A stretch of DNA of 59,435 bases, counting the filler, from Stramenopiles sp. TOSAG23-6 (lineage: Eukaryota), in assembly GCA_900128565.1 (NCBI GenBank). It is 3 parts of 3 records of this genome, joined end to end, with 100 filler letters (N's around TTAATTAATTAA, not from the genome) between each part and the next. Parts side by side here need not be neighbours in the genome. Positions count along the whole stretch, not along the records: positions 1 to 19,788 come from LT636046.1; positions 19,889 to 39,652 come from LT636047.1; positions 39,753 to 59,435 come from LT636048.1. The stretch is one strand, 5' to 3'. The notes beneath the pieces are model-generated. The model searched no databases. It was given only the letters and a program-made list of their open reading frames with translations, and was not told the origin of the DNA. The first letter of the stretch is position 1, and every line of letters begins with the position of its first letter. This document shows positions 387 to 59,000 of the stretch, one piece after another. The position numbers and the translations under genes are program-made.

Positions 387-1925
387 GTTGGTTGTATTGT
401 GGGTTCGTTAACTGATGATATTGATCGCGGTGAATTATATGAGGAGCTTCGAAGAACAGCGACAGAGCGTATGTTTTCATCATTATATTTCAAAATCATT
501 TGTTTTTTCGTACGATATTTCATAGTTAATACTTTTTTTTTTTGAGTGTTCGTGTACGTGTTTAATATAATGTCAAATGTATTTATGTTCATGGAAATTT
601 CATACCTAACATCTTTTGTAGTACAAATTATATTTTTTCAAAATACATGTGGACTCATTGAACATAATGAAGAAAGTGATGATGAAGGTGAAAAACCTGG
701 TGACTTTTGGGTTCCTGCCCCGATAGATGCCGATACTCATCATAATGATCATAATGGTACTTCAGATGAAACAGTCGGCGATGATGACGTCATATCGATC
801 TTAGTTAATATATACGGTTCCCGTGAAATATTCGTAAATGAATATCGATTAATGCTTGCTGATCGCTTGTTAGGTAAAGTTAATTTTGAAACCGATGCAG
901 AGACTTTAACTCTCGAATTACTTAAAATGCGATTTGGTGAAGATAGTCTTTTAAATTGTGAAATTATGTTGAAAGATATTGCTGATTCTAAAAGAGTGAA
1001 TAAAGGTTTGCATAAAATTGATAAAAATGCTGATAGGTGTAATAATGGCCAGAATAATAATTCATCATCTCAACAGCAAAATGTTGATAATGGAAATAAT
1101 GATGAAATGATAACTAGTGTTGATTGTGAATCACAGAAAACACAAAATTCTAATAATTGTGTCGATATTCAAAATATATCTGCTACCATCATTTCTAAAC
1201 ATTTTTGGCCACCTTTACAAAGTAGTGATCATTCTTCAAACCTTATTTGGCATCCAGTATGCAGTGCAGCACTTACATCTTTCGCCACGGATTATTCTGT
1301 ACATAAAAAACCACGTAAACTTACATGGTATAAAAACTTAGGTTTGGTTGATTTAGATTTGGAATTTAATGCTGGACATAAACGTTCATTTCGTGTTACA
1401 GCAGTACAGGCCACTGTTATTGCTCATTTTGGTGAAAAATCATCAAGAACCCTATCTGAATTAGCAGAACTTACTGGTCTTACAGCACATACTGATGGTC
1501 AACAAAATGGACGAAATTTATTGAAGCGGGCTTTATCGTATTGGGTAAATCAATTTGTACTAGAAATTCAAGATCAGCATGGGGATGGTATTAATAAAAA
1601 GGTATATTCCATTGTAGAGTCGATTGTGACAGAAAGTCAAAGAACATCTGTTCCAAGTGATATTGACGTTGATGGTGGTATAAGTGCAACGGAATTAGCA
1701 GCTCAGCAACAACAGCGTGAAGAAAATGAATCGTTTTTGAAATATATCATGGGTATGCTTAATTCTCTTGATGCATTACCTATGTTTAGAATACATAATA
1801 TGCTCAAAATTTTTGTGACAACCGGATACACGAAATCAGAAGAGCAATTGCAATGTTTACTTGATTCACTTGTGGATGATGGAAAGTTGGAGTGTGTTGC
1901 TGGTATGTATAGTATCCCTAAATGA
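387..1925 (+). CDS. APC2: Anaphase-promoting complex subunit 2, C-terminal part (exons 387-468, 649-1925)
   Basis: VGCIVGSLTD; WVPAPIDA; DVISILVNIYGSREIFVNEYRLMLADRLL; LELLKMRFGE..L.NCEIMLKDIADSKR (cullin homology); C-terminal WHB YIMGMLNSLDALPMFRIHNMLKIF. Confidence 0.9.
469..648 (+). other. Intron, predicted GT-AT (180 nt)
   Basis: c|GTATGTTTTCA...ATGGAAATTTCATACCTAAC...TTTTTTCAAAATACAT|gt is frame-preserving and removes the stop at 543-545. An in-frame AG at 620-621 is a possible canonical alternative. Confidence 0.6.
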
Positions 1926-2040
1926 TAGCTCTATATATTATACTTCTATGAAATGGATATCCTATTTCTTCACCCGTTTTAAAATGAAAATAAAAAATAG
2001 AAACTTTCGTACCAAAACAAAATTATTTCAATTTTTATTA

Positions 2041-3933
2041 TTAAAGTTTCACATTATATACATTATCAGTTATAGGTACGTACATTGGATCATACATTTT
2101 CCTCGCTAAAATTTCTCTACAATTTAAAACATCATCTGAAGACATTTTAGTAACTAAACCTTCCTTTGCAGCAGCTGTAACAGTAGCTGTGCCTACGTTT
2201 AAAGACACTTCTCGAATTCGATCTAAATCAGGAAAAACCATACCTTTATTAAGTTCATCTTCTGATACGGATTCTGCACAGGCTACCGCGCAAGAATATA
2301 CCATTTTATCCGAACATCTCTTAGCACCACTCAGAGTAGCTCCAAGACCTAAACCTGGAAAGATAAACATATTATTACATTGTGACGGTGTCATAATAGT
2401 ACCATTTTTCATTTTCACAGGATCAAAAGGAGAACCAGATGCAAATATACAAGATCCTTTTGTCCAATTGTAGGCATCAGCGGCAGAACATTCTGCTTTT
2501 GATGTTGGATTTGAAAGTGGGAATATTATCGGCCTTTCGGTATTATGATGCATTGTTTTGATGATAGATTTATCAAATAGACCCCCTTGTGCACTTAATC
2601 CAAGTAATATAGATGGCTTGTGTTCTTTCATAGCGTCGCTGAGCGACATTCCTGCTAAATTGTCAGATCTAGCAAAACGGCTTTGTGCCAAACTTAGATG
2701 TTTGCTATCTTTTGAAAGGACACCATTCACATCACATACTACAAATTGTTCTACTGCTTCGTGTTCTTTGAGACCTTGCTGTTTCATTGCATTCATCAAA
2801 GCTTCGGCTACACCAATACCAGCACTACCTGCACCAGCAATGAGAATTCGTTGATCTTTCAAAGAAGTTACAGAACGACCAGTACATCTTAATGCTGACA
2901 TTATACCAGCAATCGCCACTGCACCTGTTCCTTGAATATCATCATTAAACACAAGTCTTTCACTCCTGTAGCGATCGAGTATTATTTGAGCTTTATCACT
3001 ACTAAAATCTTCAAACTGAAGAAAGGCATTCGGGTATCGATTAAAAACAGCACTGACAAACTCATCAAGAAGTTCATAATACTCATCACCCGTAACACGC
3101 GTGTGCTTCAATCCTAAATAAAAAGGGTCTTGAAGAAGTTCCTCGTTGTTTGTACCAAAATCAAGTTGTACTGGCAAAACTCTGTGAGGAGCAATACCAC
3201 CAGCAGCACAATATAGTGCTAATTTTCCTACAGGAATTGCCATACCGTTAGCACCTAAGTCACCGAGACCTAAAATTCTACTTCCATCAGTTACAACCAC
3301 AACTTGTACGTCTTTTGAAGGCCAGTTGTGCATCATTGACGCCATGTTCATCCTGTCAAGAGTACAGAAATACATGCCTCGAGGACGTCGGAATTGAATG
3401 CCGAAATTTTGGCAAGCCTCACCGACTGTTGGAGTGTAAACAATTGGAGCTAATTCCTTAATATTATCTACCAACACACGATGATAAAGAGTCTCATTTC
3501 GATCGTGGATTTCATTCAAAAATATATGCTTTCGAAGTGGAGTCTCCTCGTCTTTTAGAACCTCCGAAATACGTTTAACTTGAGCCTTCATCGTAAAACG
3601 CCGAGGAGGAAGCAAACCACGAAGACCAAGACGATCACGTTCTCCATGGCGGAACGCGGTTCCTTTGTTATATAAAGGATCGGTGAGTATTTCACGACCT
3701 TCCTTTTTAGCAATTAACGTTTTGCGCAACTCGTATCGGACGTGAGGGCCAGGGCCAGACACTTCCTTTGTATACTGGATATCCTCATTATCTCCTTTAG
3801 CTTCATTTTTTTTTAAGTGGAGGTCTAAGTCAAAAAAATCACCTTGATGCGGCGGAGGGATAATGCTTACGCAACGAATACCATTTACACGACATAGCAA
3901 TGGTATTTTATGAATGGTACCAAAGCGATACAT
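2041..3933 (-). CDS. NAD(P)-dependent malic enzyme, probably mitochondrial; intronless
   Basis: NKGTAF..ERDRLGLRGLLPP, PIVYTPTVGEACQ, VVTDGSRILGLGDLG, FNDDIQGTG, GAGSAGIG, FPLSNPT, FASGSPF. Confidence 0.95.
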   Translation of the reverse strand: MYRFGTIHKIPLLCRVNGIRCVSIIPPPHQGDFFDLDLHLKKNEAKGDNEDIQYTKEVSGPGPHVRYELRKTLIAKKEGREILTDPLYNKGTAFRHGERDRLGLRGLLPPRRFTMKAQVKRISEVLKDEETPLRKHIFLNEIHDRNETLYHRVLVDNIKELAPIVYTPTVGEACQNFGIQFRRPRGMYFCTLDRMNMASMMHNWPSKDVQVVVVTDGSRILGLGDLGANGMAIPVGKLALYCAAGGIAPHRVLPVQLDFGTNNEELLQDPFYLGLKHTRVTGDEYYELLDEFVSAVFNRYPNAFLQFEDFSSDKAQIILDRYRSERLVFNDDIQGTGAVAIAGIMSALRCTGRSVTSLKDQRILIAGAGSAGIGVAEALMNAMKQQGLKEHEAVEQFVVCDVNGVLSKDSKHLSLAQSRFARSDNLAGMSLSDAMKEHKPSILLGLSAQGGLFDKSIIKTMHHNTERPIIFPLSNPTSKAECSAADAYNWTKGSCIFASGSPFDPVKMKNGTIMTPSQCNNMFIFPGLGLGATLSGAKRCSDKMVYSCAVACAESVSEDELNKGMVFPDLDRIREVSLNVGTATVTAAAKEGLVTKMSSDDVLNCREILARKMYDPMYVPITDNVYNVKL

Positions 3934-4091
3934 TTTACAACTTTCTAATACAGGTAGTTACGCAAAAGAACACCGAGAAGGCGCGTGTTTCTGTTGTTCC
4001 GGGGCAAAAAATATCAGATTCGAAAATGAAAATCGGATGGAATTCGTGTAAAATCAAAGTAAAAAACAAATATAGCAAGTAATTCAATTTT

Positions 4092-7000
4092 TTAATCATC
4101 AAGCATACAAAGCAATGCAACACCTCTTCTTACCCAGTGACTTTGCGGTACTTCAGACGGAATATCTAATGGTACAACAAAATTTGTACTGTGACCTGTA
4201 GTACTTAGTGTCCCTGCACGCACGGATGTTTTATATACAGGACACCTATATGCTTGGATTGTGATTCTCTCATATTCAGTAAAGGTTGTGGGAATCAGTT
4301 GTATTGCAGGCATTTCAAAAAATAACTCGGCCTTTTTACTTTCGGTCATGTTCATTGTTGTTATGTCAAAACGAGCTCCCTGCATATATAATCCATGGAT
4401 ATAAACACCTATATTTTTCATCTCTGGTGTAATATCCTTATATGATATATTGCTGACATCTGTACGAAATGTTAAAGTATCAACTGCTATTTTTGTTTTT
4501 CTCGAATGTGTTTGCAACACTGCAGTCATAAATCCCTGAGGAAAGTAAAAACCTGATAACCAGAACGATGCAGGTGGTCCATTTTCCAGCCACAACTTTG
4601 TGAACTTTAAACGTTCAAAAAAGTCTTTAATCCATGATTCTAATGGTTTTAACGATGGATATGCAGCTTCTTCCCATGATACTGGAACTTTTTGAAATAA
4701 AAAACATTGAAACATTTTCTCCAATTCTCCACTCATTACTACTAATCCTTTGATTGCTTTTTTTAAAAGAATCAACGATTTGTTAACAACAAGAATTAAA
4801 TCATTAAACCTTGATACCTCTTGCAATAAAAACACACCCATTGAGTTCATCGATCCATCTTCTATGACTGCTACAGTATCAGCATTTGCGTTTCGAATAT
4901 CGAAAGGCTCAGGTAAACGATTCAATACATCATCTGCAATACCAATCACTGTAGCTTGAACTGAGTCATTTGAACCACCTCCACCTGATCCACCACCTTC
5001 CATGATTACTAATGTTTTAGTAATGCCACGGGTCTCCTTATGTTGAAATGTAATCGCTGCATTTTGATGTAACCCATAAGCTTCTGGCAATTCCATTTGT
5101 GGTAAATTTTCTATATAATTCCGCGTGTCTTGTAAAGTACCTATAGGTGGAGAGAAATAATGCCCACTATCACTAAACTTGTAACTATCATTCATAACAT
5201 CTGGACAATAATAGCGACTCAATATATTTACATTGGCACGTTTATCCCAATCATCTGTAATACGTCCACCAATTGTCACAACGCCTACACAAACATTCAA
5301 TGTTTCATAAGGTATCTTTTCTTGTTCTTCAAGATATCTTTTTAACTGCATTACAGCTGTCTTGAAGTCTGAATTCATCCAGCCATAAGGAATATTCCAA
5401 CCAATTGCACCGAATTTTCTTCGTTCTAAACAGATTGCATTGTAAAATGCTGTCGCAAATAATAACTTTTTCCAGGATTTGATTTTTGTGCATCCTTCGA
5501 ATTCATCTTCCGTCATATCTAAAAACACTCTTCTCAAATTCATGCGAAGTCCCTTCGGGGGTTCATTTGTAATTTTAACGCCGTTCTGTAAAACAGGAAC
5601 CGGGAAATCTGGTGTTGGACTGGATGTTAACCATAATCGATAATCTTCATGGCAATCTTCTGATGCAGCATACCCTTCTAGTAATTCAGCTAAACGAGGT
5701 AACCATGACACGGATAAATGACAATTTTGTAGGCATACCCAATTACCTGCATCTCTGCCACTCTCCATTAAACTTTCAGCAATTGGACCTTGACCTTGTC
5801 CCAATGAAACGATCTTTAAATTATCGGGGCCATCTTTACCTTTCGATTTTGCTAAATTCAATAAAACATCCATTACATCAGCACCTCTGCTTAAAATAAA
5901 TATTAATGGCATTTTACAATCACTTGAATCATAAGCAATGTCTAAATTGAATGGGGGACTAGTACGAAATTCTTTACCTAAAGTCACTCCAACAAATTCC
6001 ATCATTGCAAAAACAAGTTTTTCAGGTCTCAAAGTTCGTAAAATAATAATTTTTTGAAATCGTGAAAACTTCTCATTCCAAGGAGAGCACAAGTCAATCT
6101 CATGAGGATTTTCAATTTCCGTCACATATTTGTTCCAAAATTCAGCAGTTTCATTTTCACCAATTAATGACCTCGCAAAGGAGTCATCATCATCAATTTG
6201 ACCATCACCATTTGCATCAAAGGCAGGAATTGTAGCACCCAATCGGACCATTTCTGTCCACATTTTATGGGTCAACCACTTAGGCCCCTTCTCTGGAAAT
6301 GGGTTTGCTTCTTCTGCAGGTTGATTTGCTGGAGCACCAACCAATAAAGCTTTCCATTCTTCATCCGAAATTTCGCCAAGCTGTTGAGCAATTCGGACAG
6401 CCATAACAAATGCGTATGTTAACTTATCCTTTTCAAATAGTCCTTGGCACACACCTACATACATCGACCAGGTAATGTCCTTTATGAGTATACTTAAACG
6501 TTCTTCCAATATTTCACTCGGCTCACTTTCTCTGATTCGTTTGTTATACAATGCTTTGAAGTATTGTAGAGAATATTGGTACATAGGGTCCACTGTAGCC
6601 AAAGAAGCAATTACAAAGTACAACACACTACCACGAGTGGCTACATTTCTGTATGTCTCACGAGTCAAACTAATCTCCTCCTGTGTCTTTTCAGCGCTAG
6701 CTAAAGTCTTATTAATTTTATCTGAAGTAATCTTACTTGATCTCAATGAGTCTATTAAAATTTGATCGTCCAAAATATTTCCTTTGGATTCACTCAAAAG
6801 CTTTAAAATTTTATCCTCAATGTTTTGTAAATCAGCTTTACAGGCTGATATCGCAAGCACCAATTCATCCTTTTTCTCTTCCAAATCAGGGCGCTCATTA
6901 CGTACAACATCAACTAACAATTGGTCTTCCAAACCTATTGGTGTTACTGTAAAGTTAATAATTGTGACTTTTATGCAAATCTCTGGCATGTAATGGGGAT

Positions 7001-10000
7001 TGGCTAATTTTGTTGTAATAAAAAATCGAAATTCCGGAGAATATGGAATGTCACTGTCACCTAATCTCAATAATATTTGTCCACCCTTTTTAAAAGTTTG
7101 TTTTAATAGTACGGGCTCTAAACCTGGATCCAGCTCTTCTTCTACATTTTCCAATAACACCGGACTGCCGTATCTGATACCATTTTCTAGTGTCCGAAGG
7201 AAATTTGCTTCTGACAATTTAATAACCTTTAGATCATTTTTAAACATTCTTTTCACCCATATATTAGCTTGTGCTTGTGGGTCTATCATTAAAGGCCATC
7301 GGCGACCTTGCGTAACAAATAAGCCATTCATTATTGAGAAATTATCAGCTGGTAAACCCATAATACCCCATTGTCTTACTTCCACTGGATCAGCGAGAAT
7401 ACGAATCAAGTCAAAATTTGGGTCTACGGGTATGCCAATATCTTTTGCCGCATTTACCCATTCACTAACCATTTGTTTACGAAATGCCAGAGTAAATGGG
7501 CCGATATAAGCGATACAACCAGCAGATATCATCATATTACCAATAAGATTCTTCAAATCTTTTTCAAGTATTTTCAATTTCTCCCCCCATCGGCCTTTCT
7601 CCCCCCCAAGCCCTCCAGTTAACTCGACAGCGCGTCCAAGTCTCGCCTTTGTGAGCTCACTATCCTTTTGTAATTGTGCTTTCTTTGCTAAACTACTCTC
7701 AAACATACTTTGAAGTTCTTTCAACTTGTCCATAACATCTTTTAGAGATGCTTGCTTTGCCCTCAACTCATTCATGACTACTTCTAATTCTTCCTCTGCT
7801 TTTTTTAGTGCTTCGCGCTTTGGGCCTATTTGTTTCGCAACTCTATCATATGTATGCATAGCAAGCACCCACATACATAAACATGCTGCTGCTTTCGATG
7901 TATTCGAAACATCCTTTGCAGTAAAATCTTCCCTATTAATATATTTATTCAGCTTTTTAATCGTTTTTTTTTTGATGTTATCTTTGTCATAATTTTTTAA
8001 CTGTTGTAAGAAGTCCATTTGGCCTAGTAACTTTTTACCTTCACTCCACTCAGGTTTCTTTCCCATCAAAACACACACAGCTTCCAATGTTACGCCAACA
8101 AGCATCGGTGGATTAGCAAACGATTTCACTTCTTGTAAAGACTTTTTATCTAAAGCATCTAAGGATTTAATAGCTTCATAATATGCTGGCAATGCTTCAT
8201 CTAAATCTGCCTGAACACCATCTTTCAATGTTTTTACTTTTGCAGCTTCTTTTGCTGCTGCAGCTTCCTCAATTTCACATTTAGCTTTCTTTTCAGCAGC
8301 AACAACTTGATCTTTCTTCAGCTGTACTAACAGTTCATTTGTATCTTTTTCAGCTTTGGCTAATTTTGGTTGTAAAATTTTCAACTCCTTTTGTAATTCA
8401 CTAACAATTCCTTCTGCATATTCAATTTTATTGAGGCCTAATTGATATCTAGAAACAGCATTTGTTACTTTCTCACTAGCCTCACCTAGTTTTGTAGTAT
8501 ACAGAGAAATCAATTCTAAATATGATGTGGGAGTTGTATAATTATACCTTCCCTCCTCAGCCAAATACTTTCCTGTATTTGTTTCTACACTACGATGAAT
8601 TTTTACAGCCATACGACACAATGATTCTACAACATTATTTATATTTAACTCATTGCCCTTTTTCTGCAAGAAAAAATTTGCTACACTGAACAGTGCATCA
8701 GCTGGCCAGGCACTGAACCAATCAATAGTACAACAGTTGACAAGCGAAGGAAACATACGACATCGCGTGCGAAAGGATGAACCAATCGGCGACGCACAAA
8801 AGACTATATGCAAATTTTCACGAACACAGTTTACAAAATGTGCCATTTTTGCATCGGTAGTAGTCGCTTCAATATCTTGATCTTTGCACATTTTTTCTAC
8901 CTTTGTAAGTATCATTTCAATTTCATCCAATTCGAATATATTAGGTACTTCACCACTATTTAGTATATTATTTACATCTTCAAGACAACTTTCCATTACA
9001 ACCTGTGTATCTGAATACAAAAATACTACTTGTTTATTATCTGCACCGGCTGTCATGAGCAACGTTTTTATATCTTCTCGCCATTCAGTAAAGCCGTATC
9101 CGCGAGTGATTTCTATACTTATACATTTATATTGTGCTACAAATGTTGCTAATCTCGTAAGTGATTTACGCCCACTTCCACCAACACCTACCAGTAACGC
9201 ATTTCCTCTAGGCTGACGAAGTATTCTGCTAATTCTAGCTAAATGCAAGATTGCATCTTCAAAAAATACTAATGACATGGTTGTTGGAAATGTAATATTG
9301 TACTCCTCAAGATATTCTGTGAATAAATTACCTAACTTATCATTATTATTTTCTACTTCAACATAAGGTACAACACGCCGTTCATCATCTTGGCCAGTGC
9401 CTGCCGTTTCAAAATCTCCAAAAATTAATTTTGAAAATGCAGATATCTCCCATTCTGTGTCTGCGTACTTTAATAACATTTCACCTATTTTTTTATTGAA
9501 CCAACCACGATCATTTTCATCAACTAAACGATCACGAAAGACGCGAGATTCCTCATGACACCATAGCCTTAATAAACCTGACTCTGTTGAAAATACTTCT
9601 TTAGATGACATTAGAATTCCCTGAAATACTTTACTCAAATCACGTAAATTAAATGTATAGTGGGATTTCTGTGGGGTCGGCAATAGTGCTTCTTTTATAG
9701 ACGAATAAACCTCAACTGATGCTAAACTAATTTTTGAAGAAAATTCAACCAAAGAAGGTGAAACAATACCTAAGAAACCTTCTAATATTGCATTGACAAT
9801 GGTTACCATAGATGCTTCACTCAAATCAGTCATCCAAATTAGATTAAAGCGACGCGTCAAACGCGCAGTTACATCAGCTCGACCACCACCAGGTGGTGCA
9901 CAAGCAGATGCAAATGTACAGCCTTCAACATTCTTAAAAAATAGTTTCTTAATATCGCAAAAGCTACCATCCATAACCTGGCGTAAAAGTTCGTTTGGAG

Positions 10001-19785: not shown

Positions 19786-19788
19786 AAC

Positions 19789-44180: not shown

Positions 44181-44599
44181 CTTTCTCTGGTTATTGCTTG
44201 TTTTTGTTACGATTTTTAAAACGTTTTTTGTTACGATTTTTAAAATGAGCCTGAGAGATCTACCCTAACCTAACCCTAAACCTCCAATTCTGTGAAGCTA
44301 TAATCAATGGGGTAACTTCGCTCCTTGTTCGACTCGTCAGAGCCTTATTGGCATCAATTCCATCTGTATCGCTGTAATCAGTAGTTGAACTACTTCTTAA
44401 TGACATGGTGTGAAGCAAAATACAATGCATAATTTTACTAAAATACCCCCAACCCTAGCTAGAAAAAAAAAATTGTCGTTAATTTTTCTGCACTGGCTGC
44501 GGCAGATGCACAGCTTTGCTCTCTGCGTGCTGGGTAAATTTAAAAAACTTTTAAAGACGTAAGAGGTTTTCTTATCAAAGGGATTGTATATTTTTTAAA

Positions 44600-45265: not shown

Positions 45266-45773
45266 AAGACTACAGTGTTTCCTGCAACAATTTGTTAGGT
45301 TTTTATCATATAAACACGTTTCAAGAGTTGAAATAGTGAATTATTATATATATATATATATATAAACGTTTCATTGATTTCATTCTTGATTTTTTATCTA
45401 TTCATAGAACGTCATTTCAATATTTAAAAATGTAAAAAAAGAATTTCAAACGTTTTAAAAATGTAAAATATTTAAAAAAATGTAAAAAGAAAATATTCAA
45501 AAACGTATAATTGGGAAGTAGATCAAACTTTATAGAAAAAGAACTACAATCTCTCTAGTCAAAATCTAACTTTTAAAATATGTTCAAAATATGTAAAATA
45601 TAATAATAATAATAGCTTCACTTCCGTAATAAAAGAATGTAGAAAATATTAATAAAAGCTTTTTTTTCCATCTTATAGCTCAATATAGTTGATTTACGTA
45701 GTGTTAATCCCGACACCCCAATTCATTATAGATATATATATATATGAAGTGCAGGGTTAGGGTTAACGAAACT

Positions 45774-47092: not shown

Positions 47093-47977
47093 TACTCCGT
47101 GCAAACAGAATTTAATTGGTTAATTGGCGCGAAGATTGTTTTGTTTTTGTTTCTCTCACGAGTTCACAAAAAAAAAATNATGANTTGNANTTTTCTGAAT
47201 TTTCGCNNNNNNNNNNNTCTCTCAACGANTTCANAAAAAAAAAATAATGATTTGAATTTTCTGAATTTTCGCCAATGCATACACCAGCTAAAACAAATAA
47301 ATCGAAAAAAAGATTTCGTGTTTAAAACAAATAGACTTTGATGGCCCATCAAAAAACATCAAGAATCAAAGGTCTTTGTTTCGATTCTCGTTCGCTGCAT
47401 TTCTTTTTTCATTCTTTTTTTCATTCCAAACTGTCCATTGCTCCCAAACCCCAACCCTCTTGCCGTCTCGCTTCGCTACTTAGGCCCTACCCCTTCGGGT
47501 GATCCATACCATTTTGTTACGAGTTTGCCTTTTTTTTTTTTCGAGTGTGACTGTTGGGATTCGAACCTGGGACGTCTATCGTCTGAGCAAAAGACTGCTG
47601 TGCTGTTTGGAAGATTGTAGAAACGCTACGTATATATACATAGAATAATCAATCAAAATGTTTGGCGCCAAAAGAAACCCTAACCCTAAACATCAAAAAA
47701 AAAAAAATTAATTGTTTTAGCTGGTGACTAATTGTTTTAGCTGGTGTATATTTTGGAATTTTCGCGTCAAAAAAAACAAAAAAAGGGCGCGGACAGGTTT
47801 GCGCTTTTTGGAAAATCTTTAATTTTTTTTTGACTTCGACTTCTCTCTCTCTCTCTCTCGACAAAACATATCAATTCAAAGATTTGCATTACAAGCTTTG
47901 AGATTTCGATTGGGATTGATTCATTGCTATATTATATTAGTATTGTATTAGTCATACTGATCCCCAAATAGAAGTTT

Positions 47978-49510
47978 ATGGACACTAAAGTAGATTCTAT
48001 TGTTGAAAATTTGGCGGAGCACCTTTCACTAGATGAAATCTCAGCGCCTAATTCACTGGCAGGCGACTCTACTCCCCCTCTTCATCCAAAGTCTTCCAAA
48101 TCTCTCCTGAGAGATGTACCATTGCCGCCAAATCCTACACTTCGTAGTACTTCATCTTTTGCGTCATCAACATGTCTGTCTAGTGATCTTTCTAGGGCAT
48201 CTGATTCAAGCGTCTTGAGTGTAACTCTGAGGAGCGACAGGTCAATTGCAACCCAACTGGGTGAAGATGAAGATCATTTTGACTCAACTCTTGGATTTCC
48301 TCTACACACTTTCAAAAAAGAAGTCCGAGTCGTTCTTAATCGCACCCTTCTCGAACGCTCAAAATATTTTAGGGAAAGATTGCTCTCGGATTGGGCCGAT
48401 CAGGATGACGTTGTCATGAAATTACCGACGAGCCGCGAAGTTGATGCTATGGCTGTTGCACTCAACCACTTGGCAGCCAACGACTCAGGAGCTCAAGTAC
48501 TAGAAGAGTTGACTACCCAAAATCAATTCCAATTTTATATAGCTGCCAATATGCTTGAACTCGTAGAAATGCAAGAAATATGTGAAAAGTTTATTGAAAA
48601 GAATCTTTGTGAAGGCAGTTTTGTCACAGCTATGCAACATGCTCAAACGTTTAAAGATGAAAGGCTTGTAAAAGCAACCTGGCGTTGGTTAAAGCGTCAT
48701 GGTATTAAGGAAGTGATCAAAAGTTCTGAAATTAGTGAAGATAAAACAATTAGTTCTTTATCTGTTAATGTAAATACTGGTGACTTACATTATGTACGTT
48801 TTCATCATTTTTTTTTATTTTTCAAAAAAACATTTCATACGAAATTTTGTGCCTAACAAAAAAACAATTTTTTTTCAAAAAAAATAATGTACTTAACGAT
48901 TTTTTTTTTTTTAATCTTCGCAACACAGGGTACTCAAACGGTCACTTTAAAATTATTCAGAAAATTAGTGGAAATAGAAAATTCTGCTCGAGCTGGATAT
49001 TTTGAGCATGGAAAATTTACAGCTGAAGCGGATGCAATTCCTTTAAATACCGAAGAAAATGTACGTGTACAGTATGAATTTCATTTTTTTTTTCGTACGA
49101 AATTCCGTAGCTAACGAAACATTTTTAAAAATTTGAAATATTTTTTCAATTTTTTTTTTCGTACCAAATTCCGTAGCTAACGAAACATTTTTAAAAATTT
49201 GAAATATTTTTTCACAATATATGATGAACGTGACGGTTTCATAGGTACCACAAAATTTTGGGTAGAACGAAAAAGAGACCAAAAACTTGAAAATGATGAA
49301 AATGATGAAAATGATAAAAATGATACATTTACACAATTTAATTTGTTTGTAGAAGGAACACGAGATCTTGTCATGGCTGCACGAATTCATAAAAAAGATA
49401 CTACATTTATATTATCGAATAGTGAAACTGATTTCGAAATTCATGGTCCTCATTATATTGGTCAAGTGTCTCCGAATATGCTTGGAACAGTTTTCAAAGT
49501 ATATAATCAT
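47978..49510 (+). CDS. BTB/POZ plus Tubby-like domain protein; 3'-truncated (exons 47978-48793, 48929-49060, 49223-49510)
   Basis: BTB NRTLLERSKYFRERLLSDW...AANMLELVEMQEICEKFI; Tubby LVMAAR...FILS...YIGQVSPNMLGTVFKVY. The next intron starts at 49511, inside which the palindrome folds. Confidence 0.75.
48794..48928 (+). other. GT-AG intron of the same family (135 nt; mirror 50326-50460)
   Basis: tat|GTACGTTTTCA...CATACGAAATTTTGTGCCTAAC...GTACTTAAC...GCAACACAG|ggt; phase 0. Confidence 0.75.
49061..49222 (+). other. GT-AT intron (162 nt) with a 66-bp internal tandem duplication (mirror 50032-50193)
   Basis: aat|GTACGTG...2x[CGTACSAAATTCCGTAGCTAACG...TTGAAATATTTTTTCA]...CAATATAT|gat. Confidence 0.75.
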
Positions 49511-49555
49511 GTAGTTTTTCAATTTTTAATTCAGTTTTTTTTTTGGAGAAAATTT

Positions 49556-49589
<34 letters not shown>

Positions 49590-49664
49590 CCAAGTTAAAA
49601 TTTTTCATACTTTTAAAAAAACTAAAAATTTTTAAATGTAAAACCTTTTTTTTTTTTAACTTGG

Positions 49665-49698
<34 letters not shown>

Positions 49699-49743
49699 AA
49701 ATTTTCTCCAAAAAAAAAACTGAATTAAAAATTGAAAAACTAC

Positions 49744-51276
49744 ATGATTATATACTTTGAAAACTGTTCCAAGCATATTCGGAGACACTTGACCAATATA
49801 ATGAGGACCATGAATTTCGAAATCAGTTTCACTATTCGATAATATAAATGTAGTATCTTTTTTATGAATTCGTGCAGCCATGACAAGATCTCGTGTTCCT
49901 TCTACAAACAAATTAAATTGTGTAAATGTATCATTTTTATCATTTTCATCATTTTCATCATTTTCAAGTTTTTGGTCTCTTTTTCGTTCTACCCAAAATT
50001 TTGTGGTACCTATGAAACCGTCACGTTCATCATATATTGTGAAAAAATATTTCAAATTTTTAAAAATGTTTCGTTAGCTACGGAATTTGGTACGAAAAAA
50101 AAAATTGAAAAAATATTTCAAATTTTTAAAAATGTTTCGTTAGCTACGGAATTTCGTACGAAAAAAAAAATGAAATTCATACTGTACACGTACATTTTCT
50201 TCGGTATTTAAAGGAATTGCATCCGCTTCAGCTGTAAATTTTCCATGCTCAAAATATCCAGCTCGAGCAGAATTTTCTATTTCCACTAATTTTCTGAATA
50301 ATTTTAAAGTGACCGTTTGAGTACCCTGTGTTGCGAAGATTAAAAAAAAAAAAATCGTTAAGTACATTATTTTTTTTGAAAAAAAATTGTTTTTTTGTTA
50401 GGCACAAAATTTCGTATGAAATGTTTTTTTGAAAAATAAAAAAAAATGATGAAAACGTACATAATGTAAGTCACCAGTATTTACATTAACAGATAAAGAA
50501 CTAATTGTTTTATCTTCACTAATTTCAGAACTTTTGATCACTTCCTTAATACCATGACGCTTTAACCAACGCCAGGTTGCTTTTACAAGCCTTTCATCTT
50601 TAAACGTTTGAGCATGTTGCATAGCTGTGACAAAACTGCCTTCACAAAGATTCTTTTCAATAAACTTTTCACATATTTCTTGCATTTCTACGAGTTCAAG
50701 CATATTGGCAGCTATATAAAATTGGAATTGATTTTGGGTAGTCAACTCTTCTAGTACTTGAGCTCCTGAGTCGTTGGCTGCCAAGTGGTTGAGTGCAACA
50801 GCCATAGCATCAACTTCGCGGCTCGTCGGTAATTTCATGACAACGTCATCCTGATCGGCCCAATCCGAGAGCAATCTTTCCCTAAAATATTTTGAGCGTT
50901 CGAGAAGGGTGCGATTAAGAACGACTCGGACTTCTTTTTTGAAAGTGTGTAGAGGAAATCCAAGAGTTGAGTCAAAATGATCTTCATCTTCACCCAGTTG
51001 GGTTGCAATTGACCTGTCGCTCCTCAGAGTTACACTCAAGACGCTTGAATCAGATGCCCTAGAAAGATCACTAGACAGACATGTTGATGACGCAAAAGAT
51101 GAAGTACTACGAAGTGTAGGATTTGGCGGCAATGGTACATCTCTCAGGAGAGATTTGGAAGACTTTGGATGAAGAGGGGGAGTAGAGTCGCCTGCCAGTG
51201 AATTAGGCGCTGAGATTTCATCTAGTGAAAGGTGCTCCGCCAAATTTTCAACAATAGAATCTACTTTAGTGTCCAT
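49744..51276 (-). CDS. Mirror copy of the BTB-Tubby gene
   Basis: Reverse complement of 47978-49510. Confidence 0.7.
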
Positions 51277-52095
51277 AAACTTCTATTTGGGGATCAGTAT
51301 GACTAATACAATACTAATATAATATAGCAATGAATCAATCCCAATCGAAATCTCAAAGCTTGTAATGCAAATCTTTGAATTGATATGTTTTGTCGAGAGA
51401 GAGAGAGAGAGAAGTCGAAGTCAAAAAAAAATTAAAGATTTTCCAAAAAGCGCAAACCTGTCCGCGCCCTTTTTTTGTTTTTTTTGACGCGAAAATTCCA
51501 AAATATACACCAGCTAAAACAATTAGTCACCAGCTAAAACAATTAATTTTTTTTTTTTTGATGTTTAGGGTTAGGGTTTCTTTTGGCGCCAAACATTTTG
51601 ATTGATTATTCTATGTATATATACGTAGCGTTTCTACAATCTTCCAAACAGCACAGCAGTCTTTTGCTCAGACGATAGACGTCCCAGGTTCGAATCCCAA
51701 CAGTCACACTCGAAAAAAAAAAAAGGCAAACTCGTAACAAAATGGTATGGATCACCCGAAGGGGTAGGGCCTAAGTAGCGAAGCGAGACGGCAAGAGGGT
51801 TGGGGTTTGGGAGCAATGGACAGTTTGGAATGAAAAAAAGAATGAAAAAAGAAATGCAGCGAACGAGAATCGAAACAAAGACCTTTGATTCTTGATGTTT
51901 TTTGATGGGCCATCAAAGTCTATTTGTTTTAAACACGAAATCTTTTTTTCGATTTATTTGTTTTAGCTGGTGTATGCATTGGCGAAAATTCAGAAAATTC
52001 AAATCATTATTTTTTTTTTNTGAANTCGTTGAGAGAAACAAAAACAAAACAATCTTCGCGCCAATTAACCAATTAAATTCTGTTTGCACGGAGTA

Positions 52096-53414
52096 ATGCC
52101 AGCGAGAAGGAAACGTGCATGTAATGCACAAGAAAACATAGATGCTGGAAACAAGAGGACAAAAAAGATTTCTGAAAAAAAGACAAAGAAAGTGTCCAAA
52201 AAAAAATCGAAAAAGACCAGAGAACGTAGTGTTAGTCGAGACGATGACGACTGTGATAGTATGGCAAACAAAAAGCAGAGACGACTCAGTACAGGTCCAG
52301 TAAATATATCTCTAATGGGATTAAATTCCCATGAAGAAAAGTCTGTTGCTGAAGAAGAAAAGGTTGTTGATAAAATTTCAGAAAGAAAAGTGTCAAAGAA
52401 ATCCAAAAAAAGTACAAAGACCAAGGCCAATAAGAAAAAACAAAAAATCCAAAAAGAAGCAAAGGACGCTACGTCTGATGGTGACAGTACATCACTTGAA
52501 ATTCAAGATACTACTACGGCATCAGCAACGCTACATTCTTTACAAAATATTGTTTCTATTTTAAATGAGACACTTTTACCGCCATCAAACTCTGAATCGA
52601 AACTCCGTCAAAAATTGGAAGAATTGCAAGCCAATTATGATGAGTTGCGAACACTCCGTGAGACTGAATCCGAAAAACAGTTACATAAAGCAAAAGAAAC
52701 GATAAAGAAATTACAATCCGCAAATGAGTCCTATTTAGCTTTTTTCGATAAGGAACAAGAAATTTCAAACCCTAACCCTACTGAATCTAAAAATTCAAAA
52801 GATGAGATTTTATTGGAGACTGAAAAAAAGCTCGCTGCAAAAAGCTACGAAATTAAGGTTATGAGAATGTTAACTGGCCTATATGTTAAAGCAGATGAGT
52901 CTAATCATAAAAAGTTTCTTTGCACTTCAATTTGTCACAGTCAATCGAGAGCAAGTGAGTTTGCAATTGTTCTTCCTGAGGATGATGTACGTTTTCATTT
53001 GAATATTTTTTTGGTACGAAATTTTGTACCTAAACAAAAAAANTTTTTTTTTTTTTTTNGATTTTTTTTTTACTATAAAAATCCTCCACCTCACTTTTTT
53101 TTTAATTTGTCATATATTCCCCCAAATAAATGATTCAGTAGAGTTCGTGGCCCGTAAGAATGTCAATCTTTTACCAGATTTTTTACAGGAGCCAATTGCT
53201 TTTTCAATGGAAGATGTACGTTTTCAAAATTGAATTTCAAATTTATCTTTTTTTTTTCGTACGAAATTCCGTACCTAACGAATTTTGACTACATTTTTTT
53301 TTCACAATACATGCTCCTGGTGTTATATCACAGGTAACGCATGCCCTTCGCTGGGGCGTTGATGACGAGGAGGAAGGCAGTGGAGATGAGAGTGGAGTTG
53401 AAAGCACCGGTTGA
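52096..53414 (+). CDS. Csm1/Pcs1 (monopolin)-like protein: basic N-terminus, coiled coil, RWD-like C-terminus; exons 52096-52986, 53132-53215, 53313-53414
   Basis: YDELRTLRETESEKQL coiled coil; MLTGL.V; FLCT; spliced C-terminus LLPDFLQEPIAFSMEDAP. Confidence 0.6.
52987..53131 (+). other. GT-AT intron (145 nt)
   Basis: gat|GTACGTTTTCA...GGTACGAAATTTTGTACCTAAAC...CCAAATAAAT|gat. An alternative in-frame CAT acceptor at 53113 is also AT-ending. Confidence 0.65.
53216..53312 (+). other. GT-AT intron (97 nt)
   Basis: gat|GTACGTTTTCA...CGTACGAAATTCCGTACCTAACG...TTCACAATACAT|gct. An in-frame CAG at 53333 is a possible alternative. Confidence 0.7.
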
Positions 53415-53922
53415 AGTTTCGTTAACCCTAACCCTGCACTTCATATATATATATATCTATAATGAATTGGGGTGTCGGGATTAACACTACGTAAATCAAC
53501 TATATTGAGCTATAAGATGGAAAAAAAAGCTTTTATTAATATTTTCTACATTCTTTTATTACGGAAGTGAAGCTATTATTATTATTATATTTTACATATT
53601 TTGAACATATTTTAAAAGTTAGATTTTGACTAGAGAGATTGTAGTTCTTTTTCTATAAAGTTTGATCTACTTCCCAATTATACGTTTTTGAATATTTTCT
53701 TTTTACATTTTTTTAAATATTTTACATTTTTAAAACGTTTGAAATTCTTTTTTTACATTTTTAAATATTGAAATGACGTTCTATGAATAGATAAAAAATC
53801 AAGAATGAAATCAATGAAACGTTTATATATATATATATATATAATAATTCACTATTTCAACTCTTGAAACGTGTTTATATGATAAAAACCTAACAAATTG
53901 TTGCAGGAAACACTGTAGTCTT

Positions 53923-54588
53923 TTACTTGTAAATGGATGACTCAAATGTTTGATCTTTGGATTCTTCTTCTACAGCTGGAGGATTTGATGTAGTTGGCAA
54001 TCCTCCCTCCATTGCACTCACACTATCAGCGCTAACGCGAGTGTAAGCTACGGAAGAATTGAATAAACTCTTGTGTAATATTCTAAGGCCACGAAGAAAC
54101 AAACCCTCTCTTAAATCATCGTCGGCAACCAAATAAATAAACAAAACTAAGAATCGAATCATTTGATATGTACTTCCAAACAACATACTCGCGGTTGGAC
54201 CTACTATAGCAGTAGAAACAAGGCAAATTACGTCCCCAAGTAACTCTGTGAAGGCAAAGATGAACCAATACACAAGCCACTCTGTCTGTGTAGATTTCTC
54301 CTCAATTGCACTAATAGATCTGAATGATTCCAATAAGGGGAAAGGCAAAACAACAGCAACGTAGACAAGATGAAGGAATGTATCAGCACCAGTCATTAGG
54401 AAAATTAAAACACATAAACATACAGACACAGCAAGGACGAATCTGCCTTTTGAGACTCCAGAACTTTGCTCAACTTGTCTGAGGATTGGCTGGTTTTCAA
54501 CTTCTGAGCTGAACTTTGTAGCCACTCGTCTCAGCCGTGCTCCAAGTTTCTGTCCCATCATTCGTGTATCCCAATCATTTGAACTCAT
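53923..54588 (-). CDS. Mirror copy of the HVA22/REEP gene
   Basis: Identical to 44600-45265. Confidence 0.7.
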   Translation of the reverse strand: MSSNDWDTRMMGQKLGARLRRVATKFSSEVENQPILRQVEQSSGVSKGRFVLAVSVCLCVLIFLMTGADTFLHLVYVAVVLPFPLLESFRSISAIEEKSTQTEWLVYWFIFAFTELLGDVICLVSTAIVGPTASMLFGSTYQMIRFLVLFIYLVADDDLREGLFLRGLRILHKSLFNSSVAYTRVSADSVSAMEGGLPTTSNPPAVEEESKDQTFESSIYK

Positions 54589-55007
54589 TTTAAAAAATAT
54601 ACAATCCCTTTGATAAGAAAACCTCTTACGTCTTTAAAAGTTTTTTAAATTTACCCAGCACGCAGAGAGCAAAGCTGTGCATCTGCCGCAGCCAGTGCAG
54701 AAAAATTAACGACAATTTTTTTTTTCTAGCTAGGGTTGGGGGTATTTTAGTAAAATTATGCATTGTATTTTGCTTCACACCATGTCATTAAGAAGTAGTT
54801 CAACTACTGATTACAGCGATACAGATGGAATTGATGCCAATAAGGCTCTGACGAGTCGAACAAGGAGCGAAGTTACCCCATTGATTATAGCTTCACAGAA
54901 TTGGAGGTTTAGGGTTAGGTTAGGGTAGATCTCTCAGGCTCATTTTAAAAATCGTAACAAAAAACGTTTTAAAAATCGTAACAAAAACAAGCAATAACCA
55001 GAGAAAG

Positions 55008-55821
55008 TCACAACTTCGAATCCATACTTTCTTCTGAATAAACACCCATATATCCAGGAATCAATACTCGTTCCATTGTACCAAATATAATATTTTGAGG
55101 TACAGGTTTTCGCATCAAATTAGACACAATTTTTTCTTTCACTTTTTCTGAGACAAAAAGAATTTCAACATTTTGTGGAACAGTTAAATTGATTTCATGT
55201 TGAAAGACAGCTTCGCCATCCCAATTTGTAATGAAAGGGTTACGATTTGGAAATCTATTTACCATTGCTTTGGTGTCACAATCACCAACGGTACAAGAGT
55301 TAACTGAATCAGTGGATACATATACACCAGCTTTGTTCATTTTCCACTCCTCGAGATAGCCTACAGAATGGACCCAACAGCACTTATTTCCACCATCCAT
55401 TATCATTGCCATTACTTCACTAGTTTTATCATTTGTTGTTATGGTAGATATATTTGCAACAAGTGAATTTCGCCCAATTTTTCCGAATTGTTTCTGTGGG
55501 TTGATGAAAAAACTATCNGTATGNTTTTTCTNTTATGNCACCTGAAATAATGATGAGTACTTCATCAATTATCACTGAATGAAGCGTAGTTTCTTGGAAA
55601 AACATTGGTGAAAAATAAACTCCACCTCCAAAGCAATAATGTTCTTTCACCTTTCTATTATCTGGAGAACGTAGTTTGTATCCGTCCTCGGCAATTTGTA
55701 AAAGAGTATCAATTCTAGTTTTATGAATAAAATATATACCACTTTCTCTTTGAATTACATCAGCACCACTAATACAGTAGACTATAGATAATGCAAGAAT
55801 GCTAAATAGCCAGATATTCAT
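55008..55821 (-). CDS. Mirror copy of the secreted protein at 43367-44180
   Basis: Identical, including the Ns. Confidence 0.45.
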
Positions 55822-56093
55822 TATTCAGACTAGTATGCAGCAATTCAGAACCATAAATTAACGAATATTATGTTTATCTTATTTGTAATAGTAAAATAAG
55901 AGAGGACGAAGTGTGGCCAACTCGAAAAGAGAGACACAAACCAAACGCAAAGGCTAAATCAAATGGTTTTTTTGTTTTGAACTTTTTGAGTTGATTGATT
56001 GGCCCACACTCTAAAAGAGACGCTAAAAATACTCTAAAAGAGTGTGTTTACTTCTCAAAGAATGCTTGTAATGCTATAGAAATACTCCGAATT

Positions 56094-59000
56094 ATGGGAG
56101 CGTCCAATTCTCATCTAAGTAAAGTAGACGAATATCTTGTTGACCAAGTTTGTCTGTGGAGTGGTTGGTTGTTAAAGTCTAAAGTGCAAAGAAACTGGAC
56201 TCGACGTTATTTTGAGATATATTCCAAGATTCCTTTTGGTTCTGTTGATAATGTTACATCCGTTCTAGTATACAGAGTTTCTCCAGATGGACCAATCAAA
56301 GACATTATAAAACTAAGCGAATTTTGTTGTTTTTCCAGGATTGCAATAGAGAAAAATGCTAATGACAACCGAATGCTAGTGCTTGTTACCCGGGAGCAAG
56401 TATGGCAAATGAAGTTTGTATCTCCTGAACAGGAACCAAAATTTTCTGCTGCCCTTGCTCGAATAATCCCTTTTAAGTCCGTTATCAAAGAAGGATGGAT
56501 CGAAAAGTTCAGTTGTAAAATCGGAAGTGTAGCTGGGCTTGGAGAAAATGATGGAATTTTCCCTGGAAAAATATCTCAGGATACTAATCTCAATCGTGTT
56601 TCTTCACCTTCTTCATCATCTTCTTCATCATCTGCTGGTGGTAAAGGTAATTTATCAAGTAGTACATGCAAGCAAATTGGGTCGACTACAAATCCTTCAC
56701 CTAGAAAGCAGAAAACACCGTTGGAAGAATCTCTGAAAAGTATTCGAGAAACTCTGATGGGAGAGTCAGGAAGCTTCAGACAAAGATTATTCGGTTTACG
56801 ATGTACGTTTTCAAAATTGAATTTCAATTTTTTTTTCATACGAAATTTTGTACCTAAGAAAAAAATTTCAAATTTTGAAAAAAAACAAATTCACAATACA
56901 TCCGAATGGAAGCGTCGATATGCTGTTTTATTAGAGTCGAGTACTCTGTTATATTTCACGAATGAAAAAATGCAAATTTTACGTGGTTGGATGGATCTCA
57001 AACACTGTAAAAATATTAGTTATGCATATAGTACAATTGAGAATGGAAATGTACATTTTCATAATCAATTTCATTTTGTTTTTTTTTCATACGAAATTTT
57101 GTACCTAACAAAAAAAATCAATTTTTTTTTTAATATTTTCCAAAAATTCATCGACCAGAAATTTCCTTTTATGATTTGAGACTTCCTCCCAAAGTTTATC
57201 ATTTTCGTGTACCTAATGATAGTACAGATATAAATAGCGATATTTATATCGATGAGATGAATCCTAGTAGAGAGCCGTTACGCGTTGCAGAGTGTACCTT
57301 TTCATTTCAATTTTAAATTTATTTTTATTTCGTACGAAATTTTGTACCTAACAAATTTTAGTTTTTTTTTTTTGAAATATTTTTTCATAATCCATGGCTC
57401 TCTGCAATGAATGAAACTGTCAAGACTTGTAAAGAGTCTTTAAGTACATCTTCAACTGTATCTTCAGATATATCTTCAAATACGTCACTGAATAGTTTAG
57501 AGTCTGTAAATAAAGCAAAACTAAAACAATTAAAAAAACTAAAAAAACAAAAAAATGTTAAAAAAACTAAAAACAAAGCTTCAAAAATGAAAAACATTTC
57601 TTTTGTTTTAGATCAAAAACAACCAAGAAGAAGACATAAAAAAATTTCAGCTGGATATAGAGGTATGGCAAAACGTCGAAGTGCGAGAGGTGTCATTCGC
57701 TTGCGTGAAGCTGCAGAGAAAGATTTAATGTATACAAAAGAATGTTCGACAAACCCTAACTCAAACCCTAACCCTAACTCAAATCAACAAAAACTTAAAT
57801 GTAATAATGATGATGAACATGGGCAAGAGGATACTGTTTTCTTGGATGATGATTCAATTATAAATGATTCTATCAAAGAAAATACACAAAATATACAAAA
57901 TAGTGAGGTAAGATTAGATAAGAATCAAAATAATCAAAATAATCAAAATGAAAAAATTCAGAAAAAAATACACAAAAGAAATCAAAAACACGAAAATCTA
58001 GGAAAATCAAATCATTCAAATGGTGGTGATGTCATAACACGTGTGAAAGTTATTATTCAAACGTCATCAAATAAAGGAATATCATTAGAATCACAAGCAC
58101 GAATGTTAAAAAATAGTATTATTTCTGAATATGGAAGAGAAATTTTTGAAAGGCGAAAATCCGAATTCGAACAGCTATTGCTACAAGCTGCAGTGAGTAA
58201 TACAAAACTTAATAAGAAGAATCCGAGCGATATTGTTGATGATGATGATACAGTTAATTGTACAACAAAGATTAATGATGATGATGTTGTTGATGATGAG
58301 ACAGTTGATTTTAAAACAAAGATACCAAAGCAAAACAAACAGGAAACAAATAATGATACTTCTCAAACTCGTCAATGTTCTAGTGCAACGTTGTACGTTT
58401 TATTTTTTTTTTTACAGAAAAATCGAATTTTTTTTTCGTACGAAATTTTGTACCTAACAAATTTTACAAAAAAAAAATTTCACAATATATGTACAATTCT
58501 TCTTCAAATGATAATACACAAACAATAGATGATAAAATTCGACTTTGGTCTTCTGGGCTTGATTTTCTATCCCTTATCGAAAATATCCATATTCCTATAT
58601 TTGGTTTTTCTGTATGTCACTCTCTCATAGATTTTAATTTATTTTTTTCATACAAAATTTTGTACCTAATGAATTTGAATTTATTTTTTTTCATACAAAA
58701 TCTCTCTCATGAATTTTAATTTTTTTTTCATACAAAATTTTGTAAAATTATTTTTTATTTATTTGTTCATATTTTATGCTTTACAAAATCAAGGAAAACA
58801 AATTCACTTTAAAGGTCCAGAGGTTGGGGAACTCGTCACACTTCGTGACATTCGGCGTACATTTTATATGAATTTCTAATTTTTTTTTAAATTTTTTTTT
58901 TTCGTACGAAATTTCGTACCTAACGATTTTTTTTTTTTGGTAAAATTTTTTTTTTTCACAATATATGTGGCTATCAATTTGCTCTACGTATTTGCCATCC

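Follow-up and report, generated by a model that had tools for sequence, protein, structure and literature searches.

How can an intron do without its final G? Known spliceosomal introns have G as their last base in well over 99% of cases, and spliceosome structures and yeast genetics show that this G is recognized by non-Watson-Crick pairing to the G at the start of the intron. The question is raised by a 59,435-nucleotide (nt) stretch of the genome of Stramenopiles sp. TOSAG23-6 (assembly GCA_900128565.1), here called the window, in which parts of records LT636046.1 (positions 1-19,788), LT636047.1 (19,889-39,652) and LT636048.1 (39,753-59,435) are joined by filler. An initial annotation of this DNA had listed 12 segments that interrupt genes, begin with GT and end with AT, and had described them as independent insertions. 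A check of the sequence confirmed these ends for all 12, and for a further segment at 248-386. The segments do occupy separate loci, but they are copies of one repeat family rather than independent. We consider it likely that they represent an introner-like element that forms spliceosomal GT-AT introns in this stramenopile.

The family is defined by a 22-nt core, CGTACGAAATTTTGTACCTAAC, for which we found 25 matches with no more than three mismatches on the two strands of the window, versus none in 100 shuffled sequences. Alignment of 15 copies gave a T-rich consensus of ~95 nt with conserved ends, laid out as (T)GTACGTTTTCA ... T-rich ... TTTCGTACGAAATTTTGTACCTAAC ... T-rich, GAAATA ... TTTTTTCAMAATACAT(G). 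Family copies carry a small hairpin, GUACGAAAUUUUGUAC, that precedes a CTAAC motif, and they share the 3' end TTCAMAATAYAT; apart from the core, CA.AAT..AT is the best-conserved part. The 15 distinct copies are clustered in six genes (APC2, a discoidin-like gene, Tub, one unnamed gene, a gene with PH and J domains that we call PH-J, and one truncated gene), with none in a 12.5 kb dynein open reading frame (ORF) or in several other genes, and all 15 lie in the sense orientation of the ORF-bearing strand. Because all the segments are copies of one repeat, their shared GT..AT ends can be attributed to common descent. Fourteen copies are complete introns, and 13 of these, seen in 49 kb of unique sequence, are GT-AT. 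The earlier inventory had placed its segments correctly and had missed the family intron at 48794-48928, which is in frame and ends in AG. The copies are as follows.

248-386, plus strand: atypical family intron, GT..AT, phase 0; a 60-nt poly-T run stands in place of the 5' half; core match at 331-352 with one mismatch.
469-648, plus strand: longer, diverged copy of the family in the APC2 gene, GT..AT; an AG at 621 is an in-frame alternative.
17860-17952, plus strand: family intron in the secreted discoidin-like gene, GT..AT, phase 0.
18173-18262, plus strand: family intron, GT..AT, phase 1; splice product ...DNDRSTFWRW...
39753-39830, plus strand: 3' part of a family intron cut by an N gap; ends ACACAT, then a 34-codon open frame (read by eye).
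48794-48928, plus strand: family intron of the GT-AG type in the Tub gene, phase 0, in frame; donor GTACGTTTTCA and core; ends ACACAG.
49061-49222, plus strand: family intron in the Tub-domain gene, GT..AT, phase 0; two tandem cores.
52987-53131, plus strand: family intron, GT..AT in frame; long atypical 3' part with two N; 3' boundary uncertain, AG alternative at 53143.
53216-53312, plus strand: family intron, GT..AT, phase 0; an AG at 53333 is an in-frame alternative.
56803-56901, plus strand: family intron with RNA support in the PH-J gene, 99 nt; AT..AC, TG..CA and GT..AT registers equivalent.
57051-57151, plus strand: family intron inside the second PH domain, GT..AT, phase 0; with the donor kept, no canonical acceptor lies in frame.
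57294-57395, plus strand: family intron, GT..AT, phase 1; splicing forms a TGG codon in ...RVAEWLSAMNE...
58393-58490, plus strand: family intron, GT..AT, phase 2.
58612-58777, plus strand: longer family intron, GT..AT, phase 0; second partial core; in-frame AG alternative at 58822.
58857-58966, plus strand: family intron, GT..AT, phase 1; splice product DIRRGYQFALRICHPDK; next AG at 59006.

Removal of the segments is compatible with the reading frame throughout. Cutting at GT..AT joined stop-free flanks in frame in 13 of 13 cases, that is, in the 12 segments for which frame restoration had been claimed and in 248-386. When the six introns within 56803-58966 are removed, a single ORF of 827 amino acids results, which starts MGASNS, ends ...RICHPDK... 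and contains two PH-like regions followed by a C-terminal segment with HPD; cutting both 48794-48928 (GT..AG) and 49061-49222 likewise leaves an open frame in the Tub gene. If the family donor is kept, 6 of the 13 introns lack any in-frame AG within 60 nt that could serve as acceptor. One example is 17860-17952, for which an alternative appears if the donor is shifted (17864/17980). Two more specific observations of the initial annotation also held: there is no AG from 58857 until 59006, and splicing of 57294-57395 creates a Trp codon.

Exon-by-exon Pfam comparisons are not in conflict with the predicted junctions. It is the downstream exons alone that were matched, from near their first residue: residues 2-39 of the PH exon correspond to profile positions 18-57, residues 2-42 of the DnaJ exon to positions 21-55, and residues 2-89 of the F5/8C exon, downstream of 18173-18262, to positions 25-114 of the F5/8 type C profile (E 0.0057, under the gathering score). 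The exon downstream of 469-648 has Cullin/ANAPC2 matches, and three single exons had no Pfam match. For the exon downstream of 58857-58966 we obtained weak DnaJ and auxilin-like J-domain matches (E 0.14-0.16 in the PDB, including Arabidopsis 3ag7), with no PDB match for the 26-amino-acid exon before it. Protein searches for spliced or intron-less relatives returned none for the J-domain exon (near lengths) or for PH-J exon 1 (longer lengths), and PH-J exon 1 had no match among 1.84 billion representative proteins.

Removal from polyA RNA was seen for one copy. Comparison with RNA and DNA sequencing runs covered 55539-59435, and what follows refers to the contig pieces and joints listed for that region. 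In the polyA metatranscriptome X9, a 208-nt contig (record 25, depth 2.7) joins 56800 to 56900 and skips 99 nt, with contig positions 61-208 on 56653-56800 and 1-60 on 56900-56959 and one mismatch in each piece. Since the upstream exon ends in AT, cuts at 56801-56899, 56802-56900 and 56803-56901 would yield identical RNA. The contig thus matches exactly the predicted 99-nt removal at 56803-56901, in a register that is ambiguous by 2 nt. We detected no other true junction contig; most of the listed joints connect one repeat copy to another and were set aside as repeat artefacts. In a second polyA RNA run (X7) the bins over the core had depths of 0.4-3.9, beside an exon contig at 4.1, contig depth being a rough guide that cannot rank parts of a gene.

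Independent DNA speaks to whether the acceptors are truly AT, reads with AG having been named earlier as one finding that would overturn the interpretation. X4 is a DNA metagenome of seawater from 2024. Its record 7 (58722-58872) has no listed difference from the window at 58776-58777, the acceptor AT of 58612-58777, and record 8 (58930-59386) has none at the acceptor AT of 58857-58966; a third contig (record 3) crosses from the exon into the 5' end of 56803-56901. The agreement at 58777 and 58966 indicates that the AT acceptors are not misreads of AG. The segments are present in all listed DNA contigs that reach them, and the DNA runs that best match the scaffold are very small runs.

The element may be abundant. 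In X4 the core bins reached depths of 31,098-55,542 versus ~2-5 in unique bins, some 10^3-10^4 times deeper, where depths sum all contigs and organisms. We found no match to an exact 25-nt core in GTDB genome contigs, IMG/VR or JGI metagenome contigs. Tandem partial duplications of the element occur inside two introns of the window (49061-49222 and 58612-58777). Several metagenome contigs fuse the 3' end of one copy straight to the GTACG start of another, indicating that other parts of the genome hold the element in tandem or head-to-tail arrays.

Both the frame and the RNA fix the length that is removed but not the exact cut, and the register therefore needs further argument. In 7 of the 13 GT..AT introns an AT stands directly before the GT, so that cuts of the AT..AC or TG..CA type give the same mRNA there. 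For each intron, named here by its first base, the shifts that leave the spliced product unchanged are as follows.

-2 to 0: 17860, 56803 and 57051 (AT upstream).
-2 to +1: 49061, 52987 and 53216.
-4 to 0: 18173.
0 to +2: 248, 469 and 58857.
-1 to +1: 57294 and 58612.
-1 to +4: 58393.

Register 0 is the only shift allowed for every intron. In this register the donor reads GTAYGT (G+1 and T+2 in 14 of 14, A+3 in 13, G+5 in 10 and T+6 in 14), and at the 3' end A-2 is found in 15 of 15 copies and the last base is T in 14 and G in one. The exon flanks are variable: of 14 introns, 8 are preceded by AT, 11 have T and 3 have C at exon base -1, and 9 have A at base -2. Downstream, the exon begins with G in 11 of 15 cases (the G content of the window is 17%). 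The GT-AG copy adds an internal reference point. At 48794-48928 we found the family donor, cattat/GTACGTTTTCA (a slash marks the border), the core and an end of the form ...CGCAACACAG/GGT, whose AG is the first AG 3' of its CTAAC. This end, ...CAACACAG, aligns with ...AAAACACAT of the other copies, the final G falling at the position of their T; it aligns equally with ...CCAAAACACAT/ of 18173-18262 and of the copy at 39753-39830. Because G aligns with T, the 3' junction of the family can be placed directly after that base. Any other register turns variable exonic flanks into the bases of the splice site, which, together with the GT-AG sibling, makes GT-AT the most economical reading; we infer register 0 for all copies on this basis. 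The original reading of the segments as introns with a 5' GT and a 3' AT is thus upheld, with the amendment that AG is also accepted, since 48794-48928 as a GT-AG intron implies that the organism splices AG too.

The same introns might instead be removed without all being GT-AT, with AT-AC or TG-CA cuts in those that have AT upstream and heterogeneous borders in the rest. The seven introns in which the -2 register gives the same mRNA are consistent with this, as is the position of the RNA junction, which the aligner set at 56800/56900; an A at position 1 and a C at the last position form a known isosteric terminal pair. In the -2 register, however, the remaining six of the 13 introns would start with AC, GC, GT, TT, CT or GC, whereas positions +1 to +6 in register 0 have the textbook form GTAYGT in 14 of 14. 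The GT-AG copy, moreover, places the 3' junction directly behind the last base in the alignment. At 58857, register -2 would give IRCGY in place of IRRGY; auxilin-like J domains have two basic residues at this place, and the PDB alignment starts after it. We regard this alternative as unlikely.

By their sequence, the remaining signals look U2-type rather than U12-type. The donor resembles the yeast-type GTATGT and falls within the U2-type hexamer GTRNGT. All 14 introns contain CTAAN, and in 10 of them the putative branch site, CTAAC, is 33-44 nt away from the 3' end, with a T-rich tract after it. The terminal AG that would complete the U2-type pattern is found at one of 15 3' ends, the other 14 having AT.

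Introns of the minor spliceosome, whose machinery tolerates GT-AT ends and which have massively expanded in at least one protist, are a further candidate class. The U12-type branch site has the consensus TCCTTAAC and typically lies ~10-26 nt from the 3' end. ACCTAAC in the element is loosely similar to this consensus, but CTAAC at 33-44 nt is too far from the 3' end and the donor is GTAYGTTTT, not RTATCCTT. GT-AT has been reported among the functional non-canonical borders of U12-type introns (PMC1557818), and in Physarum, where U12-type branch sites were placed 9-12 nt from the 3' end (Larue et al. preprint), the spacing is again short. We consider a U12-type origin of these introns very unlikely.

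We also looked for structure that might bring the intron ends together. RNAalifold identified a 6-bp core hairpin as the only conserved helix, without compensatory change, and the folding z-scores of single copies were ordinary in six of eight (-0.15 to -0.84) and lower in two (-2.4 and -2.6). A conserved structure pairing the intron ends was not supported by either measure. The last bases of the consensus, UACAU, are complementary to AU/GUA at the 5' border, and it is conceivable, as an idea only, that this pairing picks the 3' site.

These properties bear on removal by something other than the spliceosome, either excision by end pairing as in Euglena or Amoebophrya or DNA elimination of the kind that removes internal eliminated sequences in ciliates. 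Every intron has a direct repeat of 2-5 nt across its borders, the consensus end is complementary to the 5' border as described, and the introners of Amoebophrya have been reported to combine 3-5-nt direct repeats with non-canonical borders (PMC7789003). Against this, the borders here are uniform, standard donor and branch signals are conserved, and the core hairpin is the sole conserved helix in copies whose folding energies are mostly ordinary. The segments are present both in single-cell-type and in metagenomic DNA, and the genes use the standard code. We regard a non-spliceosomal route as highly improbable.

Several observations count against splicing of the family at GT..AT. Same-donor in-frame AG acceptors exist for 469, 52987, 53216, 58612 and 18173. 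The initial annotation had noted alternatives at 621 and 53333 and for the 18173 donor, and we confirm these; further ones are at 53143 and 58822. The introns at 52987-53131, 58612-58777 and 469-648 (AG at 53143, 58822 and 621) are weaker cases. The Pfam domain matches across junctions are all under gathering scores and do not themselves demonstrate contiguity. A spliced RNA contig was found for one of 14 introns, at depth 2.7 and with a junction that reads equally as AT..AC, TG..CA or GT..AT, and no RNA contig listed for 55539-59435 spans a junction that excludes the -2 register. In typical copies there are 4-7 other ATs between CTAAC and the 3' end; the dinucleotide is therefore insufficient by itself to specify the site, and recognition must extend to a longer signal. 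Finally, the RNA runs hold many element-containing contigs, with bins of up to 10,038 in X8 and 16,707 in the polyA run X9, a depth that could reflect unspliced RNA, which would argue against efficient removal, or DNA carry-over.

A further alternative is that the insertions are removed rarely or not at all, and that the genes are disrupted or the assembly is at fault. Besides the element-containing contigs in X8 and X9, the N gaps and a perfect 10-kb palindrome in the scaffold fit this possibility. However, 13 of 13 segments are frame-compatible, all copies are in sense, one spliced RNA contig exists, and independent metagenome contigs reproduce the exon-intron borders; we find the proposal barely credible.

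The palindrome itself occupies 39753-59435, where a left arm (39753-49600) and a right arm (49654-59435) form a perfect inverted duplication of 9.8 kb that is 100% complementary. Positions 39753-47158 pair with 52030-59435 and 47218-49600 with 49654-52036, both at 100%. Its limits coincide exactly with the N gap on one side and the end of the window on the other, and its centre is T-rich sequence just past an intron-like GTAGTTTTTCAA at 49513. The centre lies inside what looks like an intron of the Tub gene, which is truncated there. We conclude that the palindrome is probably an amplification product or an assembly chimera and not biology. All listed introns from 49061 on also appear mirrored on the minus strand, which leaves the count of distinct introns unaffected. 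The orphan 3' end at 39830, listed earlier as a separate case, is the mirror of the last 78 bases of the window (59358-59435, minus strand), beside the N gap.

How might such a family arise and be spliced? Under the model that we favour, the segments are copies of one T-rich, non-autonomous repeat of the introner type, ~90-110 nt in length. It sits in sense in protein genes of an otherwise intron-poor marine stramenopile and would be removed from mRNA as a spliceosomal intron of U2-type appearance. Each copy would supply its own donor GTAYGT, a branch-like CTAAC after the hairpin, a U-rich tract and the conserved 3' end; the exons would be ligated after the final AT, giving a GT-AT intron, and a copy with G as its last base would be cut at the equivalent position, as a conventional GT-AG intron. 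The choice of the 3' site would then depend on more sequence than the AT dinucleotide.

The borders may point to an origin in transposon-like insertion at AT/G sites. Seven of the 13 GT..AT introns are flanked by direct repeats of the form AT..AT and four by GT..GT repeats, and AT also precedes the GT-AG copy; the inverted ends extend over 3-5 nt, (AT)GTA..TAC(AT), without a clear terminal inverted repeat (TIR) or a target-site duplication (TSD) of fixed length. A 2-bp TSD, of which the second copy became the last two bases of the intron, would fit the AT..AT repeats, and splicing would then restore the original coding sequence. Six introns are exceptions to this, and four of these have GT..GT repeats. 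The full scenario, a burst of introners on the order of thousands of copies, cut by the major spliceosome at YAU where YAG would be expected, with the 3' site chosen through an extended signal of the element or through UACAU/AU-GUA pairing instead of a scan for the first AG, and with the AT perhaps being a TSD copy, is one on which our judgement is evenly balanced.

Introns with GT-AT borders have so far been known as a rare class. Seven U12-type examples in human plus mouse and one conserved U2-type example in DGCR2 have been reported (Sheth et al. 2006, PMC1557818), and in Physarum GT-AT accounts for 17% of the 0.8% of introns that are non-canonical (Larue et al. preprint). As described there, these introns share the terminal dinucleotides of those in the window and show that a spliceosome can ligate after AU; unlike them, they are few, mostly U12-type and belong to no repeat family, whereas GT-AT makes up 13 of 14 complete introns here. 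The initial annotation knew of no described genome dominated by GT-AT introns, and the literature as far as available to us agrees. We found no description of a GT-AT introner family in full-text literature, a scope outside which supplements and subscription journals fall. A search of the same literature for 'MAST-4' introners found none, and papers on introns or splicing in 'MAST-3' were unrelated by title and abstract. Single-cell genome papers on marine stramenopiles (PMC5778133, PMC5269757, PMC8237690 and PMC9903769) make no mention of non-canonical introns in their accessible text, supplements being outside that scope.

Introner families, in contrast, have been reported with GY-AG borders (Gozashti et al. 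2022, PMC9860276; 2025, PMC12130899). According to the portions of these papers available, the 2025 survey accepted AG and AC as 3' sites and checked or discarded families with unfamiliar sites (PMC12130899), and known introners recruit splice sites from TSDs (PMC9860276). The introners of Micromonas, Aureococcus and dinoflagellates resemble the present family as many near-identical short introns in unrelated genes, more AT-rich than the exons and with their own splice signals, distributed unevenly among genes and bordered by short direct repeats that may be TSDs. They differ in being GY-AG, whereas AT is found at 14 of 15 3' ends here, without a clear TIR or fixed TSD and with no autonomous partner in the window. 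Amoebophrya (Farhat et al. 2021, PMC7789003), also a marine protist, has repeated non-canonical introns with boundary direct repeats of 3-5 nt; as reported, its borders are highly variable, follow no single dinucleotide rule and carry terminal inverted repeats of 8-20 nt that form hairpins, in contrast to the uniform GT..AT, standard donor and branch signals and lack of conserved end pairing in this family. The nonconventional introns of euglenids similarly have variable borders and an end-pairing structure, unlike the family described here, with its uniform ends and no conserved pairing between them. Fritillaria borealis and hemistasiid diplonemids are lineages in which most introns lack GT-AG, but the borders reported for them vary widely, with no dominant pair (CT-CG and TG-GC, for instance, each account for <12%), and do not keep the 5' GT (PMC12621601).

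If GT-AT splicing is confirmed, U would routinely take the place of the terminal G, a base supposed to be essential to introns, and an introner would be able to spread with a non-canonical border. Should this hold genome-wide, the rule of splicing would be a very unusual one. A family ending in U with one member ending in G would offer a ready-made allelic series for the study of second-step site choice. Introner surveys based on annotation, and gene finders, would be blind to such families, and the gene catalogues of uncultured marine stramenopiles made with GT-AG-only predictors could be wrong where the elements sit.

The surrounding sequence is a eukaryotic scaffold with a GC content of ~31-39% and interspersed N gaps. 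Its genes are mostly single long ORFs, including those for a dynein heavy chain, malic enzyme, HDAC, an RCC1 protein, MSS51, a BspA-type leucine-rich repeat (LRR) protein, a DUF4116 protein and others. The dynein heavy chain ORF (4092-16652, minus strand) is complete and uninterrupted over 4186 amino acids stop to stop, which shows how intron-poor the genome is outside the repeat-bearing genes. An Rfam scan of the window identified a tRNA at 25110-25181 as its sole match and thus no small nuclear RNA gene, and no transposase-like domain was found among 25 ORFs scanned in the window.

The HDAC gene illustrates the state of existing annotation. Its ORF (37259-38569, minus strand) is intronless, continuous and conserved, and its best named relatives are stramenopiles. 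A public EukProt coding sequence, whose label includes 'MAST', is 99% identical to it over aligned columns, minus five internal blocks that correspond to GT..AG deletions of 66, 36, 57, 36 and 84 nt inside the ORF. These five GT-AG introns of the public model are invented, which suggests that GT-AG-only prediction was applied to this genome and that real introns would be hidden; the existing annotation of the organism seems unreliable for intron structure.

We noted some further features of the scaffold. A chimeric join may be present in the exon upstream of 248-386. A run of 40 A opens the window, and the first exon (1-247) reads as a zinc-finger segment (HPIVLNCNQKWCHCYSCDDWV) passing into APC2-like sequence, which may be a second such join. 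The filler at 19789-19888 is flanked on both sides by 44-nt N gaps, and the neighbouring genes at 19837-20838 and 21163-22320 encode the BspA-type LRR and DUF4116 repeat proteins. Telomere-like motifs of two units (AACCCTAACCCTAA) occur at 59158-59172, 53424-53435, 47676-47689, 44263-44273, 57764-57778 and 52768-52779. One lies immediately past the PH-J stop codon, one shortly past the end of the gene at 52069, one ~290 nt 5' of the start of the Tub gene, and two are inside coding regions (NPNP); motifs of the AACCCTAACCCTAA type resemble the 'telobox' elements of plants.

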